Below are positions 35,629-45,532 of a DNA stretch of 50,668 bases, in pieces. How positions within the stretch are numbered: position 1 is the first letter of the stretch; each line of letters starts with the position of its first letter. The notes beneath the pieces are model-generated. The model saw only the letters and a program-made list of their open reading frames with translations, was not told the DNA's origin and did not search any database. Location of the stretch: assembly GCA_964466835.1 (NCBI GenBank), contig CAYXNV010000006.1, positions 1 through 50,668 of the forward strand. The letters run 5' to 3'. The DNA is from an uncultured Gammaproteobacteria bacterium (lineage in GTDB: Bacteria > Patescibacteriota > Patescibacteriia > Patescibacteriales > UBA12465). A program made the position numbers and the translations under genes.

Positions 35629-36510
35629 TTATTTTCTACCTTTTATTATAGAATGTTCAAAAACATACATCGCGTCTTCATCGCCATATTTCTTCTTCAT
35701 CTTATTGAAAAAATTTAAAACTGGTTTAGCAAGAACATGATCTATTTTTTGATCTTTAACAACTTCATTAAATATATCCATGTCTTTTGCCATATATTTG
35801 AGATAAAAGCCCAGGGCAGGATGTTTCTCTTTTAAATTTCTTTTAATAGCATTGGATATAGCCTGATTATCTCCAGAGCTTTCAGATATTATTTTAATTG
35901 CCTTACGAAAATCTATCTTATTTTTTTTCATAACCAACAATCCTTGAGTGCTAGCTAATAAATTCATGGCGAAAAGAAAATTATTTAAAGACTTAACGTA
36001 CATACCTGAGCCAAAGGGGCCTAAGTGAACAATAATTTCTCCCATGGCCTTAAATATTGGTAGACATTTTTGAAAAGATTTTTTATCACCCCCAACCATA
36101 ATTGATAAAGTGCCTTTAATGGCTGCCTGTTGACCTCTAGATACTGGCGCATCCATCATAATAACACCTTTCTTCTTCAAACGTTTCATTATTTTAGTGG
36201 TTTCCACTGGATTAGATGTGCTCATATCAATTATAATTTGGTTTTTGGATAAACCTTGAGCTAACCCATTTTTGCCAAAAATTACATCGTTTGTTTCTTT
36301 GTGTGTAGGTAACATTAAAATAATAATCTCGCATTGTTCAGCTACTTGTTTGGGTGTTTGGGTAATACCTAAGCCCAGCTTCTTTAATTCATTTAAAACT
36401 TTCTTGGAACGATTATATCCAACAACTTGATAATTATTTTTGATTAAATTCTTGGCCATGTATTTGCCCATCATGCCAAGCCCAATAAATCCTATTTGTG
36501 TTTTTTTCAT
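35629..36510 (-). CDS. NAD(P)-dependent beta-hydroxyacid dehydrogenase (HIBADH family)
   Basis: GFIGLGMMG, IIDMST, DAPVSRG, KSLNN. Confidence 0.88.
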   Translation of the reverse strand: MKKTQIGFIGLGMMGKYMAKNLIKNNYQVVGYNRSKKVLNELKKLGLGITQTPKQVAEQCEIIILMLPTHKETNDVIFGKNGLAQGLSKNQIIIDMSTSNPVETTKIMKRLKKKGVIMMDAPVSRGQQAAIKGTLSIMVGGDKKSFQKCLPIFKAMGEIIVHLGPFGSGMYVKSLNNFLFAMNLLASTQGLLVMKKNKIDFRKAIKIISESSGDNQAISNAIKRNLKEKHPALGFYLKYMAKDMDIFNEVVKDQKIDHVLAKPVLNFFNKMKKKYGDEDAMYVFEHSIIKGRK

Positions 36511-38502: not shown

Positions 38503-39300
38503 TCAATCTATACTTCTTTCTATACTTCTTTGTCTAATTGCCTCAAAAACAATAATAGCAGCTGAAACTGATACATTTAACGAATCTATTCCTTCTTTCA
38601 TTGGTATCTTTATTATTTCATCGGCCTGCTCTATCCACTCCTTGCTTAATCCGTTTGCTTCAGAGCCTAAAACAATAGCAACTGCTTCCTTAAAGTTCTG
38701 TTCGGAATAATTTATTTCAGCGTCAGTGGTGGTAGCAAAACTTTTAATATTATTCTGTTTCAACCACTTCTTCGTCTCCCCTCTCGAGACCACAACTATT
38801 TGATTAGCAAATATCTTTCCTTCACTAGCTCTGATAACATTGGGATTATAGATATCAGTTTGATTATCATTAATAATAACTGCATCAACACCAATAGCAC
38901 AAGCTGTTCTAATAATAGCTCCTAAATTACCTGGCTTCTCTACTGCCTCTAAAATAATTATCAAAGGGGCCTTGCTTAATTTAATGTCTGTTAATGTTAA
39001 ATCTTTTCTTTTCGCTATTGCTAAAAATCCATCTGGATTATCTTTATAGCAAATCTTTTTAAAAACATTTTCTGGTACTTCAATAATCTTTTCTTTATTT
39101 ATCTTTGGTGGTTGTTCTGAACTTAATTCTGGGCAATAGAATAGTTCTTGTATTTCTATTTTAGCTTTAATTGCTTCTTCTATCTCTCTCAGACCATCAA
39201 TTACAAAAAGACCTTGCTCTTTTCTAGCACTCTTTTTCTGTAACAACTTAACAACATTCTTTATTTTTGGATTTTGGAGACTATTTAAAGTATTCATCAT
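38503..39300 (-). CDS. TrmH/SpoU-family RNA methyltransferase
   Basis: PGNLGAIIRTA, LGSEANG, IPM..DSLNVS. Confidence 0.94.
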   Translation of the reverse strand: MMNTLNSLQNPKIKNVVKLLQKKSARKEQGLFVIDGLREIEEAIKAKIEIQELFYCPELSSEQPPKINKEKIIEVPENVFKKICYKDNPDGFLAIAKRKDLTLTDIKLSKAPLIIILEAVEKPGNLGAIIRTACAIGVDAVIINDNQTDIYNPNVIRASEGKIFANQIVVVSRGETKKWLKQNNIKSFATTTDAEINYSEQNFKEAVAIVLGSEANGLSKEWIEQADEIIKIPMKEGIDSLNVSVSAAIIVFEAIRQRSIERSID

Positions 39301-39353
39301 CTTTATTATAGACTAAAATTTGACAAAATCATACCATCAGCTATAATAATTTT

Positions 39354-39485
39354 ATGGATTTCTACAATCTTAACAACACTATTATTATTAACAGCTTGAT
39401 TATTATTAATCAAGCTGGTTTTGATGTGTAAATAGTTTAATTTATATACTATCTAAAACCGGCCTTAAAAATTGGCCGGTTTTTT
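39354..39485 (+). promoter_or_regulatory. Putative leader-peptide transcription attenuator
   Basis: 25-aa ORF (39354-39431) with two ATT-ATT-ATT runs; alternative 1:2, 2:3 and 3:4 hairpins; U-tract; promoter at 39320-39347. Confidence 0.65.
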
Positions 39486-39538
39486 AATTAAGAAATTTAA
39501 CAACAAAATAAATACTAACATTTTAAAAAGGAGGAAAA

Positions 39539-39724
39539 ATGAATCAAACTGCTGATTCCAAGAAAACAAATGATGTTGCTGGGAAAGTTGAAGCCCTAAT
39601 TGAAACAATAAAAAAGGCCGGAGAAGAGGACCCCAAAGGTACTCAGGATAAAATAACTACTGTGATTAAACAGTTAGAGTTAGAAAGGTTATATTTGGAT
39701 AAAAGCAACATCATGTCTTGTTAA
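39539..39724 (+). CDS. Small hypothetical protein
   Basis: 61 aa; AAGGAGG upstream; terminator at 39733-39759. Confidence 0.65.
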   Translation: MNQTADSKKTNDVAGKVEALIETIKKAGEEDPKGTQDKITTVIKQLELERLYLDKSNIMSC

Positions 39725-39826
39725 ATCAAGCCAAAAAGGGACAATCTTGTCCCTTTTTTATTTAACATTAGCCAACCTTTTGCTAGTTTAATTAAAATGT
39801 TATAATATTAAGGAAATTATTAATTT

Positions 39827-42694
39827 ATGCCTATCCCGCAATTACAAAAACGAAAAACTCAAACCTGGAGAAATCAAAGAAAAAAACATAAACCAGCCAG
39901 AAAAACTTCTTCCAGAAAAAGTTTTAAGAGAAAAGAAAGAAAAATAAGAAATTTAAAGAAAAAACTATTTTCAATCGCAATAACTCTATTTTTGGTTGTT
40001 GTTATTTTTGTTTTTCTGTTTGTTGCCTGGCTTTCACGTAATATCCCTAACCCAAATCAATTAATTAACCGCGAGGTTGCTCAAAGCACCAAAATTTATG
40101 ACCGTACCGGTGAAAATATTCTTTACGAAATTCATGGTGAAGAAAAAAGAACCTTAGTTTCTTTAGAAGACATTCCTGATTATGTGAAAGAAGCGGCGAT
40201 AGCGATTGAAGATAAAAATTTCTATAAACATAGTGGCATCAGTCTCTGGGCAATGTTTAGAACTTTAATCACCAACGTTCTTCGCAATGAACGAGCTGGT
40301 GGTTCAACCCTAACTCAACAATTTATTAAAAATGCTGTTCTCACTCCGGAAAAAAGAATTTCTCGAAAGATAAAAGAAATCGTTTTAGCTCAACGCTTAG
40401 AAAAAAAGTTTTCTAAAGATGAAATTCTTCAAATGTATTTGAATGAAATCCCTTATGGCTCTAATGCCTATGGAGTTGAAGCTGCTAGTCAAAAATACTT
40501 TGGTAAAAGCGTCCAAGATATTAGTTTAGCTGAAGCAGCTGTGCTGGCGGCTCTGCCACAAGCTCCTAGTCGCTATTCTCCCTATGGTCCCAACAAAGAT
40601 TTATTACTAGGAAGAAAAAATTATGTTCTAGATCTAATGGAAGAACAAGGATATATCACTGATGAAGAAAGAAAGACTTCTCAAGAAGAAGAAATTAAAT
40701 TCCGTGGGCCAGAAACTAACATCACTGCCCCTCACTTTGTAATGTATATAAAAAATATTCTCTCAGAAAAATACGGAGAAAAAATGATTGAACAAGAGGG
40801 TCTAAAAATATACACTACCCTAGATTTATATAAACAAGAAATTGCCGAAGAAGTAATCGCTGAAAAAACCGAAAAATACGAAGAAAATTTCAATGCCAGC
40901 AATGTTTCTTTGGTGACAATTGACCCTAAAACTGGACAAATATTAGCGATGATCGGTTCTCGTGATTATTTTGACGATGAAATTGATGGCCAAGTAAATG
41001 TCTCTACTCGTCCTCGCCAACCCGGGTCCTCAATGAAACCAATTGTCTACGCTGCTCTTTTTGAAAAGGGCTACACCCCTGATACAGTTCTTTACGACGT
41101 AGTCACAAATTTCTCTACCGACCCTGACGAGCCATACGAACCACACAACTATGATGGTAATGAAAATGGTCCAGTTAGTATAAGGAAAGCCTTAGCTGGC
41201 TCTTTAAATATCCCAGCGGTAAAAGCTATTTATTTAGCTAATATAAATAATGTTCTTGATTTAGCTGATAACTTGGGTTACACCACCCTTTACCCTCGAA
41301 ATCGCTTTGGTCTTTCTTTGGTGTTGGGTGGAGGAGAAGTAAAACTACTAGAACATGTTAACGCCTATAGCGCCTTTGCTCGTGACGGTTATGTCAGCCC
41401 AATTGTGGGGATATTAAAAGTGGAAGATAAAGACGGCAAAGTGATTGAAGAGTATAAAGAAAGCCGAGAGAAGGTGATTACCCCTCAAGTTGCCCGAATG
41501 ATTAATAGTATTCTTTCAGATAATGACGCTCGCACATTTGCTTTTGGCGAAAACAACCCCCTCACCCTTGGTGATCGCCCCGTAGCGGCTAAAACTGGTA
41601 CCACCAACGACTACCACGATGCTTGGACGATTGGTTATACTCCTTCTATTGTTACTGGTGTCTGGGTGGGTAATAGCAATAATGACAAAATGGTTGATGG
41701 TGCTGGCGGCAGTACTTTAGCTGGTCCGATTTGGCATGATTTTATGAAAAAGGTATTGGGTGACACCCCGATTGAAGTTTTTAAAGAGCCTGATGAATAT
41801 AAAACTGGAAAAGCTATTTTAGATGGAGAAATGCCTTTAGAATTAGTTAAAATAGATTCTAGTTCTGGTCTATTAGCTAATGAACTAACTCCTCTTGAAT
41901 TAATTATTGAAAGAATGGCTCCTGTGCATCACAATATTCTTTTCTATGTTGATAAAGAAAACCCAACTGGGAAAAATCCTGAAAACCCAAGCCTTGATTC
42001 ACAATTTGATCTTTGGGAGGAAGCAATACAAACTTGGTCTGGAGAAAACGCTACCTCCTCATTAGAACTACCAGAAGATTACGACCGCTTCCATAATGAA
42101 GAAAACAAACCTACTCTAAAAATTCTTTCTCCTAATAAAAATGAAACCATTAATAAGTCTGAACTAAAAATCAAAATAAAAGCTAATGCTCCTCGTAGTA
42201 TTGGTCGAGTTGAATATTATATTAATAATAATATCTGGGGAACTAAATGGGGTGAACCAGGAGAGTTTAGTAAAGATATTAGTTTTTTAAACAATGGCTT
42301 TCATTCTCTAAGGGTAAAAGCTTGTGATGATATTGAAAACTGCTCTGAAAGTAGTATCAACTTTAATTTATTAATTAAAGACAACCACATTACTACTGAT
42401 AAAAACTCTATCCAAATGGTTGAACCAAGCAATGGTTTAGCTTTAAACACTATTGATTTTCCTTTACAAATAAAACTACTAATAAACAACCCCGAACGAA
42501 CTGCTAAGATAGATATTGTAATAGAAACCAGTGAAAAAATTGAAGTGGTCCGAAGAATAATACCAACTGAAAAAAGCATAACTATCAACTGGGGCAGTCC
42601 GCCAACTAGCGGAACCTATTTATTCTATGCCAGATTGCATGATTGGAATGGTGATGTCCTAGAAAGTAATAAAATTAATCTAACTGTTAATTAA
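39827..42694 (+). CDS. Class A penicillin-binding protein (PBP1A family) with C-terminal Ig-like domains
   Basis: EDKNFY, GGSTLTQQ, RKIKE; transpeptidase SSMK, SLN, KTGT. Confidence 0.95.
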   Translation: MPIPQLQKRKTQTWRNQRKKHKPARKTSSRKSFKRKERKIRNLKKKLFSIAITLFLVVVIFVFLFVAWLSRNIPNPNQLINREVAQSTKIYDRTGENILYEIHGEEKRTLVSLEDIPDYVKEAAIAIEDKNFYKHSGISLWAMFRTLITNVLRNERAGGSTLTQQFIKNAVLTPEKRISRKIKEIVLAQRLEKKFSKDEILQMYLNEIPYGSNAYGVEAASQKYFGKSVQDISLAEAAVLAALPQAPSRYSPYGPNKDLLLGRKNYVLDLMEEQGYITDEERKTSQEEEIKFRGPETNITAPHFVMYIKNILSEKYGEKMIEQEGLKIYTTLDLYKQEIAEEVIAEKTEKYEENFNASNVSLVTIDPKTGQILAMIGSRDYFDDEIDGQVNVSTRPRQPGSSMKPIVYAALFEKGYTPDTVLYDVVTNFSTDPDEPYEPHNYDGNENGPVSIRKALAGSLNIPAVKAIYLANINNVLDLADNLGYTTLYPRNRFGLSLVLGGGEVKLLEHVNAYSAFARDGYVSPIVGILKVEDKDGKVIEEYKESREKVITPQVARMINSILSDNDARTFAFGENNPLTLGDRPVAAKTGTTNDYHDAWTIGYTPSIVTGVWVGNSNNDKMVDGAGGSTLAGPIWHDFMKKVLGDTPIEVFKEPDEYKTGKAILDGEMPLELVKIDSSSGLLANELTPLELIIERMAPVHHNILFYVDKENPTGKNPENPSLDSQFDLWEEAIQTWSGENATSSLELPEDYDRFHNEENKPTLKILSPNKNETINKSELKIKIKANAPRSIGRVEYYINNNIWGTKWGEPGEFSKDISFLNNGFHSLRVKACDDIENCSESSINFNLLIKDNHITTDKNSIQMVEPSNGLALNTIDFPLQIKLLINNPERTAKIDIVIETSEKIEVVRRIIPTEKSITINWGSPPTSGTYLFYARLHDWNGDVLESNKINLTVN

Positions 42695-42760: not shown

Positions 42761-43891
42761 TTATTGTTTAATCGGCATAACAATATATAAATAATTATTT
42801 TCCTTTTCTGGCCTCAACACACAGGGAGTGTTATTGTTGATAACCCCAATTTTTACTCTATCGCCCTCAATATTATTTAAACCATCAAGGAAATAACGAT
42901 AATTAACTATCACTTCGTTATTCCCACCACTAATCTCAGCCTCTAACTCAACCTGGCTTTCACCGCTTTGTCCTGAAAAAGCAGAAACAATAATTTTGTC
43001 CTTAGAAAATTGTAAATTAACATCATTAATTCCTGTTTTAGAGAATAGCGCTGAAGCTTTAACTGCTCTTACTAACTCTGACCGTTCAACCAATATCTCT
43101 GTTTGAATTTTTTCAGGAATAATTTGTTTATAGTCGGGGTAATGACCATTTATTAAACGCGAAATTAGATCAACTGAATCGACAGTGAATAAAATTTGAT
43201 TATCTGATAAATAAAACTTTACTTCTTGTTTCTCATCTAAATCATCTCCTTCTGAACCAAAATTATTTAGAATTCTTAACAACTCTTGAACGGTTTTAGC
43301 AGGGACAATTATTTTTTGTTCGTTTTCAGTTGAATTTGTTTTAATATTAATTTCTCTTTCAGCTAAACGATAACTATCAGTGGCTGCTAATTTCAAAGTT
43401 TTTTTATTAAAAGAGAATAGAATACCAGTTAATTCAATTCTGTTCTCGCTATTAGAAACTGCGAAGACAACACTATTTAAAGCTCTTCTTAGCTCATCCA
43501 CTCCGCAACTATAGTGGATTTCTTTAGGAATAGTAGGAATAAGAGGAAATTCTTTAGCTGACTCACCTTTTATTTTAGTTCTATAATTACCACACTCCAC
43601 CCTAAGCTCATTATCTTTCTCTTCAATTTTAACTTTTTCTCCACCGCTTAACAAACCAACATACTCTGTTATTAATTTTGAATCAATTGTAAACTGACCA
43701 TCTTTTTCAATCTTTCCTCTAACCTTATGAATCACCCCAATTTCTAAGTTAGTCCCAATAAATTCAATATTACCCTCTTCTGCTTTTATTAGAATATTAT
43801 TTAAAATGGGTAAATTAATATTCTTGGCGGTTATATGCCCCACTATATTTAAACCTCTTTTTAGATTTTCCTGTAAACTGATAAATTTCAT
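42761..43891 (-). CDS. dnaN: DNA polymerase III beta clamp
   Basis: ATDSYRL, YPDY, IVMP; downstream of dnaA. Confidence 0.97.
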   Translation of the reverse strand: MKFISLQENLKRGLNIVGHITAKNINLPILNNILIKAEEGNIEFIGTNLEIGVIHKVRGKIEKDGQFTIDSKLITEYVGLLSGGEKVKIEEKDNELRVECGNYRTKIKGESAKEFPLIPTIPKEIHYSCGVDELRRALNSVVFAVSNSENRIELTGILFSFNKKTLKLAATDSYRLAEREINIKTNSTENEQKIIVPAKTVQELLRILNNFGSEGDDLDEKQEVKFYLSDNQILFTVDSVDLISRLINGHYPDYKQIIPEKIQTEILVERSELVRAVKASALFSKTGINDVNLQFSKDKIIVSAFSGQSGESQVELEAEISGGNNEVIVNYRYFLDGLNNIEGDRVKIGVINNNTPCVLRPEKENNYLYIVMPIKQ

Positions 43892-44149: not shown

Positions 44150-45532
44150 TTAATAGCTAGCACTAAATAATTGTTTAATTGATTCCACCTCTTGTTTTAT
44201 TTTTTCGTTTTCTTTTTCTCTTATTTCTTTTGCGATCTTATTATAAGCGTGCATCGCGGTAGTGTGGTCTCTGCCACCTAATTCTTGACCGATAGTTGGG
44301 TAGGAAGTATTTAATTCTTCTCTAATTAAATAAACAGCTATTTGTCGAGGCCCAACCAATTCTTTTTTCCGACTATTACCAGTTAATTCTTTATAATTTA
44401 CATTATAGAATTTGCCAACCGCTTCAATTATTTCTTTTGGTGTTAATGATTTTAATTGAATATTTGAAATAATATCACTAAGAACCTCTTTTACACTTTT
44501 AATAGTTGGGGTCAGGTTTTTAAATTGATGAGAGACGACTACTTTAGTTAATGCGCCCTCTAATTCTCTGATATTATTTTGAACATGTTCAGCTATGTAG
44601 GTTAAAATTTCTTTATCTAAATCATAATTCTTTTCTACTGCCTTTTTTTCTAAAATAGCTATTTTAGTTTCAATATCTGGCTTACCAATATCAGCCACCA
44701 TTCCAGCCTCAAAGCGGGAAATCAATCTTTTTTCAATTGCAGGAATAGATTTTGGCGGACGATCAGAGGTAATAATTATTTGTTTGTCATTTTGTTGTAG
44801 TTCATTAAAGGTGTGAAAGAATTCTTCTTGGGTACCGTCTTTTCCCCCCATAAATTGGACATCATCTACTAACAATAAGTCAACATTACGGTATAAATTC
44901 TTAAATTCTTTAGCTTTTCCAGTGTGAACAGCCTGGATATAGTTGTTAGTAAATTTTTCACTAGTAGTATAAAGAATCTTGTCAGTTTTTTTAGCGACTT
45001 CATTACCGATTGCTTGGAGTAAATGAGTTTTACCTAAGCCAACGCCTCCATAAATAAAAAGAGGGTTGTAAGCCTTCCCTAAATTATTAACTACTGCCCA
45101 ACAAGCAGCATGGGCTAACTCATTTCCCTTCCCAACAATAAAATTTTCAAAAATATAGCGAGAGTTTAAACCAAAACGATTACAATTAATTTTATTATTT
45201 ATTTTTTCTTTTTTAGGCTCAACTATTTCTTCGTTTTTTTCTTCAGCTTTTTTTATTTGGAAAGAATTGTTGTTGCCACCCTTTTTTAATTCAATTTTAT
45301 AAATGATTTCTTCAATCTTTTGTTTAACAACATTTTCTAAAGCATTTAGAATGTTTTTGTGGTATTTTTCTTCTAGCCATTTTTTTACAAAAGCATTGGG
45401 GACACAAATGACTATCCGGCCGTTTTCAAAAGAAGAGATAAAAGTGTCTTTAAACCAAGTAATAAAATTAGCTCGAGATAAGCTAATTTCGATTTCTCCT
45501 AAGACAGCCTGCCAAACTTGTTCATTGGTCAT
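44150..45532 (-). CDS. dnaA: Replication initiator DnaA
   Basis: YNPLFIYGGVGLGKTHL, DDVQF, RELEGAL, GGRDHTT. Confidence 0.98.
   Translation of the reverse strand: MTNEQVWQAVLGEIEISLSRANFITWFKDTFISSFENGRIVICVPNAFVKKWLEEKYHKNILNALENVVKQKIEEIIYKIELKKGGNNNSFQIKKAEEKNEEIVEPKKEKINNKINCNRFGLNSRYIFENFIVGKGNELAHAACWAVVNNLGKAYNPLFIYGGVGLGKTHLLQAIGNEVAKKTDKILYTTSEKFTNNYIQAVHTGKAKEFKNLYRNVDLLLVDDVQFMGGKDGTQEEFFHTFNELQQNDKQIIITSDRPPKSIPAIEKRLISRFEAGMVADIGKPDIETKIAILEKKAVEKNYDLDKEILTYIAEHVQNNIRELEGALTKVVVSHQFKNLTPTIKSVKEVLSDIISNIQLKSLTPKEIIEAVGKFYNVNYKELTGNSRKKELVGPRQIAVYLIREELNTSYPTIGQELGGRDHTTAMHAYNKIAKEIREKENEKIKQEVESIKQLFSASY

Follow-up and report, generated by a model that had tools for sequence, protein, structure and literature searches.

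A conserved isoleucine-codon attenuator, likely switching on a small gene, in a Patescibacteria genome without a detectable isoleucine pathway

Background

The leader-peptide attenuators of enterobacteria include thrL, ilvL, leuL, pheL, and trpL; thrL carries a mixture of Thr and Ile codons and ilvL a mixture of Ile, Leu, and Val codons. Here, we analyze a related element in the window, i.e. the whole 50,668-nt stretch of contig CAYXNV010000006.1 (GenBank assembly GCA_964466835.1), which belongs to a genome of the Patescibacteria (Candidate Phyla Radiation, CPR; 842 kb, 94.6% complete). The element is a 25-codon leader open reading frame (ORF) rich in Ile codons and followed by a small cargo gene for a 61-amino-acid (aa) protein. 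Like the enterobacterial leaders, it combines a short ORF and tandem control codons with three helices (1:2, 2:3, and 3:4) and a U-tract terminator, and the decisive range of ribosome positions ends just past the last control codon. Unlike them, it is leaderless and Ile-only, has no Rfam match at gathering score, and precedes a gene outside biosynthesis.

Three further systems are close. In Listeria monocytogenes, the accessible text of the Rli60 report (PMC5864092) describes a leader with codons for branched-chain amino acids (BCAAs) that senses BCAA supply, Ile being a host-derived signal. BCAA codons and a terminator/antiterminator pair are common to both leaders; as far as that text goes, Rli60 differs in its ribosome-binding site (RBS), its 13-aa peptide, and its intact ilv-leu operon, a pathway absent from our host. 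IlvL of the Corynebacterium glutamicum ilvBNC operon likewise has its start codon next to +1 and three overlapping hairpins (anti-antiterminator, antiterminator, and terminator), but uses mixed Ile/Leu/Val codons and controls acetohydroxyacid synthase (AHAS), according to the accessible part of PMC11857589. The poly-Cys short ORFs of mycobacteria, in the portion available of bioRxiv 10.1101/834739, are also leaderless, carry a run of a single codon type, and represent a design common to several operons; they act on translation by RBS sequestration, whereas the leader studied here has an intrinsic terminator.

Next to nothing is known of how Patescibacteria regulate their own genes, and in the literature searched, from which subscription journals were mostly missing, no title or abstract opening described an attenuator of CPR bacteria or of cimA. 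What is new here is an Ile attenuator retained and probably rewired in an auxotroph. If active, the switch would mark small proteins as produced when a single known amino acid, which the organism cannot make, runs short; it would also provide a direct handle on starvation and host-sensing biology in CPR bacteria, and an instance of an attenuator that persisted after loss of the biosynthetic pathway it served.

An Ile-only leader conserved at one genomic site

On the comparative evidence given below, we put at roughly 0.7 the probability that this conserved Ile-only attenuator, in a genome without a detectable Ile pathway, turns on expression of the 61-aa gene at low levels of charged tRNA-Ile(GAU). 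A preliminary description of this DNA had proposed a promoter TTGACA-16-TATAAT, a leaderless Ile-rich ORF with six ATT and five Asn codons, three competing helices, and a 61-aa gene; all of these were recovered where expected, the gene with an RBS ahead of it and a second terminator behind it (Table 1). The two hexamers (39320-39325 and 39342-39347) are 16 nt apart and form the sole 12/12 consensus among 13 promoter-like sites in positions 38800-40300. The ATG (39354) follows the -10 element by 6 nt, and the mRNA is therefore likely leaderless. The short ORF thus placed between promoter and gene carries its six ATT codons in two tandem runs, codons 10-12 (39381-39389) and 16-18 (39399-39407). 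Folding of the alternative structures found each helix stable, and the region 39353-39545 has a z-score of -5.5, with none of 200 shuffles equally stable.

Genome-wide, only four places combine a near-consensus promoter with an ATG-initiated ORF of 12-45 codons that begins 5-9 nt behind it; two of them are the Ile leader and a second, Phe-rich leader. Six Ile in 24 codons are modestly unusual taken alone (p = 0.017), and the case therefore rests on conservation.

BLAST and a sequence-only model revealed leaders at the same site, between spoU and PBP1A/galT, in six relatives (G158, G108, G111, G116, G106, and G110). Pattern scans added the metagenome contigs L100, L092, and L093, and in G069 the leader stands ahead of galT-PBP1A behind a different upstream gene. 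The nine leaders compared (all of these except L093) keep the promoter, the reading frame, 5-7 Ile codons, and an ATG 6-7 nt past the -10 element; small cargo ORFs stand behind the same-site leaders. Exact-pattern scans yielded 13 matches in GTDB (five known family members, seven unrelated coding regions, and L091) and nine in metagenomes, three of them real.

ATT and ATC exchange among the Ile codons. Beyond codon 7, the same-site leaders contain 43 ATT, 8 ATC, and 2 ATA codons, against a genome-wide ATA share of 22%; this near-absence of ATA points to tRNA-Ile(GAU), which is encoded in the host genome. Besides GAU, the host tRNA set (ARAGORN) includes a tRNA-Ile with UAU anticodon. A tRNA-Asn is not among the 41 host tRNAs found with ARAGORN and is likely unassembled.

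Leaders of this composition precede citramalate synthase genes

The citramalate synthase model TIGR00977 matched 39 of 316 order genomes. Among the best 30 of its 47 matches, twenty proteins are nearest to citramalate synthase (CimA), nine of them above cut-off, and the other ten are LeuA proteins that all pass the cut-off. Leaders with 28-38% Ile, sought within 420 nt upstream and selected by eye where there were several short ORFs, precede 15 of the 20 CimA-type genes; the other five comprise two weaker leaders (16-17% Ile), one Ile run without ATG, one gene with none, and one without upstream DNA. All ten LeuA genes have leaders with 27-36% Leu and at most 8% Ile, and prephenate dehydratase and ADH synthase genes are preceded by Phe/Tyr-rich leaders.

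The cimA leader of G054, MNLIQKITKIIINIIIIIINDDFCYPLKT, closely parallels the studied one. G133, the sole family genome with a TIGR00977 match, has an Ile leader ahead of its CimA-like gene, and our model R2 picks up the leaders upstream of cimA in G047 and G279 as well. Citramalate synthase is the entry to the threonine-independent isoleucine route, which accounts for a leader that is Ile-only. The studied leader shares with the order's cimA leaders two Ile runs (in most ending 4-6 codons before a Phe), a similar length, and a terminator behind the ORF; it differs in that cimA is absent from the host and a small orphan ORF follows. In the order relatives, the regulated gene belongs to the pathway of the sensed amino acid; here, it is the 61-aa orphan.

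On codon composition, we therefore classify the leader as a cimA-type attenuator and not as a thr/ilv one. The thr/ilv layout named in the preliminary description holds for the arrangement of the helices, but not for the type: the ORF contains only 1 Thr, 1 Val, and 2 Leu, and no Thr or Leu leader family is among the Rfam matches. A T-box or riboswitch at the site was also rejected, as none of the 27 weak Rfam matches for the leader region reaches its gathering score.

Four order loci (L196, L198, L199, and L208) carry a second leader of mixed Val/Ile/Leu composition 400-900 nt upstream of the cimA Ile leader, i.e. tandem attenuators in one region.

The host appears auxotrophic for isoleucine

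No match was found in the host genome to HMGL-like (CimA/LeuA), IlvD, aminotransferase IV, thiamine pyrophosphate (TPP)-enzyme, or PALP domains, nor to prephenate dehydratase (pheA). A match to KARI_N is weak and partial and falls on a 293-aa dehydrogenase (35629-36510). Judged by these domain searches, the host is without CimA/LeuA, AHAS, IlvD, IlvE, and IlvA-type enzymes. Of the 148 family genomes, only two have an HMGL-like (CimA/LeuA-like) enzyme. The host does encode a RelA/SpoT domain.

The earlier proposal of an Ile-shortage attenuator in an auxotrophic lineage thus fits both the cimA link and the missing pathway, with the refinement that the leader is of the Ile-only type.

A shared scaffold with covarying, mutually exclusive helices

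A covariance model built from 16 leaders, which themselves match by construction, found the scaffold 48 times across 40 of the 148 family genomes and 39 times across 34 of the 151 order genomes sampled. Most matches comprise a promoter, a near-leaderless ATG, an ORF of 23-36 codons, and a terminator. Two of them, the Leu-rich L156 (G253) and the Met-rich L142 (G213), are intact leaders with terminators and no cargo ORF <220 nt downstream.

Covariation was assessed on 47 chosen leaders, which are kin and not independent, in an alignment fitted to the terminator and not to the antiterminator. Pairing reaches 89.5% in the terminator 3:4, with 50 two-sided changes, and 79.8% in the antiterminator 2:3, with 30, and in both cases none of 500 shuffles matched the number of two-sided changes; the two-sided counts of both helices also exceed those of all slid registers. 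Two of five antiterminator measures fail to beat shuffles. Cognate 2:3 duplexes average -19.0 kcal/mol versus -12.5 for non-cognate ones, and cognate 1:2 duplexes -16.7 versus -11.4; the 1:3 control duplexes do not differ (-6.3 versus -6.2). Antiterminator and terminator are thus mutually exclusive helices that covary, and ORF and pairings alike are conserved. An arrest motif in the AGF/RPAF tail of the peptide was rejected, as identical nucleotides are read in different frames and the tail is the antiterminator.

The scaffold leaders also bear on what is sensed. Under an alternative account, the leader reports general translation stress or Ile and Asn together: a stall anywhere in codons 10-18 opens the switch, and the ATT runs keep the RNA AU-rich. 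In its favor, any stall up to codon 17-19 favors 2:3 in our model (see below), four to five Asn occur in G000, G158, L100, and G069, and the reading of the AGF/RPAF tail in differing frames means that the RNA dictates part of the peptide. We nevertheless regard this account as improbable: four g33 homologs drop to 0-2 Asn and retain 6-7 Ile, scaffold leaders use runs of Leu, Phe/Tyr, Met, or Asn, with Ile, Leu, and Phe/Tyr matching the pathway of the cargo, and no resistance gene follows the leader.

Switch geometry and proposed mechanism

With the ribosome modeled as a block of 9-15 nt, the antiterminator remains accessible as long as the A site is no further than codon 17-19 and is blocked past that point. 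All six Ile codons fall inside the range in which 2:3 is free; this range ends at codon 18-20, according to the footprint assumed, and a stall within it frees strand 2 in this model.

Attenuation by shortage of charged tRNA-Ile(GAU) might accordingly proceed as follows. The ribosome would start at the 5′ AUG of the leader. With Ile plentiful, it would move past codon 19-20 and cover strand 2, so that the terminator forms and an RNA of ~130 nt is released. With Ile scarce, a stall at codons 10-12 or 16-18 would melt 1:2 and free strand 2; the antiterminator would then form first, and RNA polymerase would enter the small gene and stop at 39733-39762. We suppose that the leader formerly controlled cimA and outlived its loss through re-coupling to small genes. 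The preliminary description had offered control of a small protein and a leftover of a lost operon as alternatives; the two are not exclusive, since the leader looks as if it had both lost its cimA partner and gained a small ORF in its place. That the small protein is a starvation-response factor is a guess from its regulation alone.

The cargo ORFs and their probable dependence on the leader

Same-site cargo ORFs encode 49-80 aa and are mostly without detectable relation to each other. One common cargo family was rejected (61-aa protein against 21 other small cargos, best z = 2.2), as was an origin from a CimA remnant (eight small cargos against CimA/LeuA frames, no significant phmmer match among 24,497 six-frame segments). 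Codon comparisons nonetheless indicate that the cargo of genus g33 is under purifying selection: between G116 and L092, it shows 15 synonymous versus 3 non-synonymous changes (spoU 67:8, galT 76:29), and between G111 and G116, 6 versus 0 over 23 codons.

G101 has lost the leader through a deletion of 96 nt between two TTAAGAA repeats, with promoter and terminator left; the cargo is a pseudogene whose start codon is gone and which has gained stops, as expected if it needs the leader for expression. This decay, together with the covarying antiterminator, indicates control in cis and makes it highly improbable that the ~130-nt terminated RNA or the 25-aa peptide acts in trans, or that the switch tunes PBP1A through read-through. 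A trans-acting product would fit a conserved leader with exchangeable cargo, and rnTrpL/peTrpL of Sinorhizobium meliloti provide a precedent in the accessible text of PMC6614838 and PMC7298713; PBP1A/galT are insulated by the second terminator and a likely separate promoter, and we judged control of PBP1A by the leader unlikely for the same reason.

The 61-aa protein is predicted to form a two-helix hairpin (residues 13-30 and 32-59; confidence score pLDDT 82). Its one homolog among 1.84 billion representatives is P0006 (56 aa, E = 2.7e-6), 46-48% identical and with the same C-terminal Cys. Further searches returned (i) no Pfam family above cut-off; (ii) in two word-index searches, no protein other than itself, apart from P0006 in the second; (iii) no usable ESM Atlas match; (iv) no match in 315 other order genomes or viral contigs; (v) no PDB sequence match below E 0.06; and (vi) no Foldseek match, a wide structural search not having been run, which leaves remote fold matches open. 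A C-terminal Cys recurs in many small cargos (L105, L110, L025, L162, L165, L147, C22, P0005, and P0006), which are mostly not detectably homologous.

Distribution of the cassette and points against the switch

DNA upstream of spoU was read in 99 of 133 SpoU-matched family genomes. The cassette is complete in seven (two of the 55 from the host's own genus and five of the 14 from g33). G138 has a decayed leader without cargo, G133 a Phe/Tyr leader at this site, and 20 sites hold other genes or contig ends. In G065 and G062 (L294, L295), a charged ORF of 59-60 aa directly follows the promoter without a leader. Relatives without the cassette have an identical -35 element directly 5′ of PBP1A. Carriers are scattered on deep branches of a quick, unrooted SpoU tree; this is most simply explained by repeated loss of an ancestral cassette, and transfer among relatives could also produce such a scatter.

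Several observations weigh against an active, Ile-sensing switch. The terminator wins at equilibrium for every ribosome position on full-length RNA (p ≥ 0.97), and no ribosome is needed for the lower part of 2:3 to form (p = 0.95); the switch therefore has to work kinetically, as leader-peptide attenuators usually do. As to the cimA parallel, its leaders were chosen by eye, 11 of the 20 CimA-type proteins score under the TIGR00977 cut-off, and the studied leader contains 24% Ile compared with a cimA-leader mean of 31.5%, and twice the Asn. As to the cargo, the g33 ORF that provides the evidence for selection shows no detectable relationship with the 61-aa protein, and in G106 and L093 the cargo is frameshifted behind an intact leader. 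Finally, 67 of the 99 sites lack the cassette, the next long gene lying <220 nt away.

The frameshifted cargos and the empty sites would also suit a regulatory relic, i.e. an Ile attenuator real in origin and now drifting, with the 61-aa ORF as dispensable filler in a cassette being lost. Such decay is visible in G101 and G138, scaffold leaders such as L156 and L142 lack a cargo ORF, and the 61-aa protein is unmatched in the other order genomes. We consider a relic unlikely all the same, because leader peptides stay 32-71% identical (six of the group) while SpoU of the carriers is 51-56% identical, the g33 cargo is under purifying selection, and the 61-aa protein has a homolog with the same terminal Cys and a confidently predicted hairpin.

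Locus features and other leaders

Table 1. Elements of the leader cassette and its flanks (window positions).
Feature	Position	Strand	Basis
Sigma-70 promoter TTGACA-16-TATAAT	39320..39347	+	12/12 consensus; conserved in homologs
Leaderless leader ORF, 25 aa, MDFYNLNNTIIINSLIIINQAGFDV then stop	39354..39431	+	sequence; nine same-site homologous leaders
Anti-antiterminator hairpin 1:2, extendable to 39376-39429	39392..39417	+	-15.6 / -19.6 kcal/mol
Antiterminator 2:3, GCTGGTTTT pairing AAAACCGGC, plus inner stem	39414..39463	+	-17.4 kcal/mol
Intrinsic terminator 3:4 with U tract	39455..39485	+	-16.3 kcal/mol
Shine-Dalgarno AGGAGG of cargo gene	39529..39534	+	sequence
Cargo ORF, 61 aa, predicted helical hairpin, C-terminal Cys, no family	39539..39724	+	sequence, prediction
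Second intrinsic terminator, end of cassette	39733..39762	+	sequence; hairpin recurs in relatives
Extended -10 (TGnTATAAT), likely PBP1A's separate promoter	39798..39806	+	sequence; inferred
SpoU rRNA methyltransferase, divergent flank marking site	38503..39300	-	Pfam PF00588
PBP1A (transglycosylase-transpeptidase), flank	39827..42694	+	Pfam PF00912, PF00905

A terminator-like hairpin stands 3′ of the cargo in all 11 loci listed. The cassette probably lies near the replication origin. What we take, on the basis of sequence, to be dnaN-like (42761-43891) and dnaA-like (44150-45532) genes are at a distance of 3-6 kb from it, and the GC-skew minimum is near 44-46 kb.

A second leader on the same scaffold lies elsewhere in the host (C22:6760-7123, +): it is Phe-rich (MHNISKNRQFFFFSFYTGSSLVDFCDVKL) and precedes a 48-aa ORF ending in Cys. 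The gene ahead of it is presumably uppP-like, as named from its sequence. Orthologs of this leader occur in G106, G111, and G116, and in G101 the cargo has been lost.

Trp/hydrophobic and Asn-rich leaders stand ahead of a family of 230-300-aa proteins, at L107, L111, L115, and L116 (after a pyrH-like gene); further loci of the family are L064, L065, L113, L119-L123, L130, L161, and L167. Members tested have no Pfam or NCBIfam match and show DC.. and Y.Q.F motifs; possibly, as a guess, the fold is a degenerate ATP-grasp. An AlphaFold model of one such cargo has a pLDDT of 38.

Taken together, these leaders suggest, tentatively and at somewhat less than even odds, that this CPR family kept ribosome-based amino acid sensors after losing biosynthesis and rewired them to fast-evolving small and 230-300-aa proteins, as an amino-acid-specific starvation regulon reading host nutrient supply. 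The sensors would be the Ile leader, the Phe leader at C22, and the Asn, Trp, and other types in relatives; the organism would be a host-dependent epibiont, and the 61-aa Cys-terminated hairpin one effector.

Two sub-threshold T-box matches were noted elsewhere in the host genome, one (C1:109055-109218, -) ahead of a 602-aa ThrRS-like ORF, named from its sequence, and one (C30:3040-3222, +) ahead of a 266-aa ORF.
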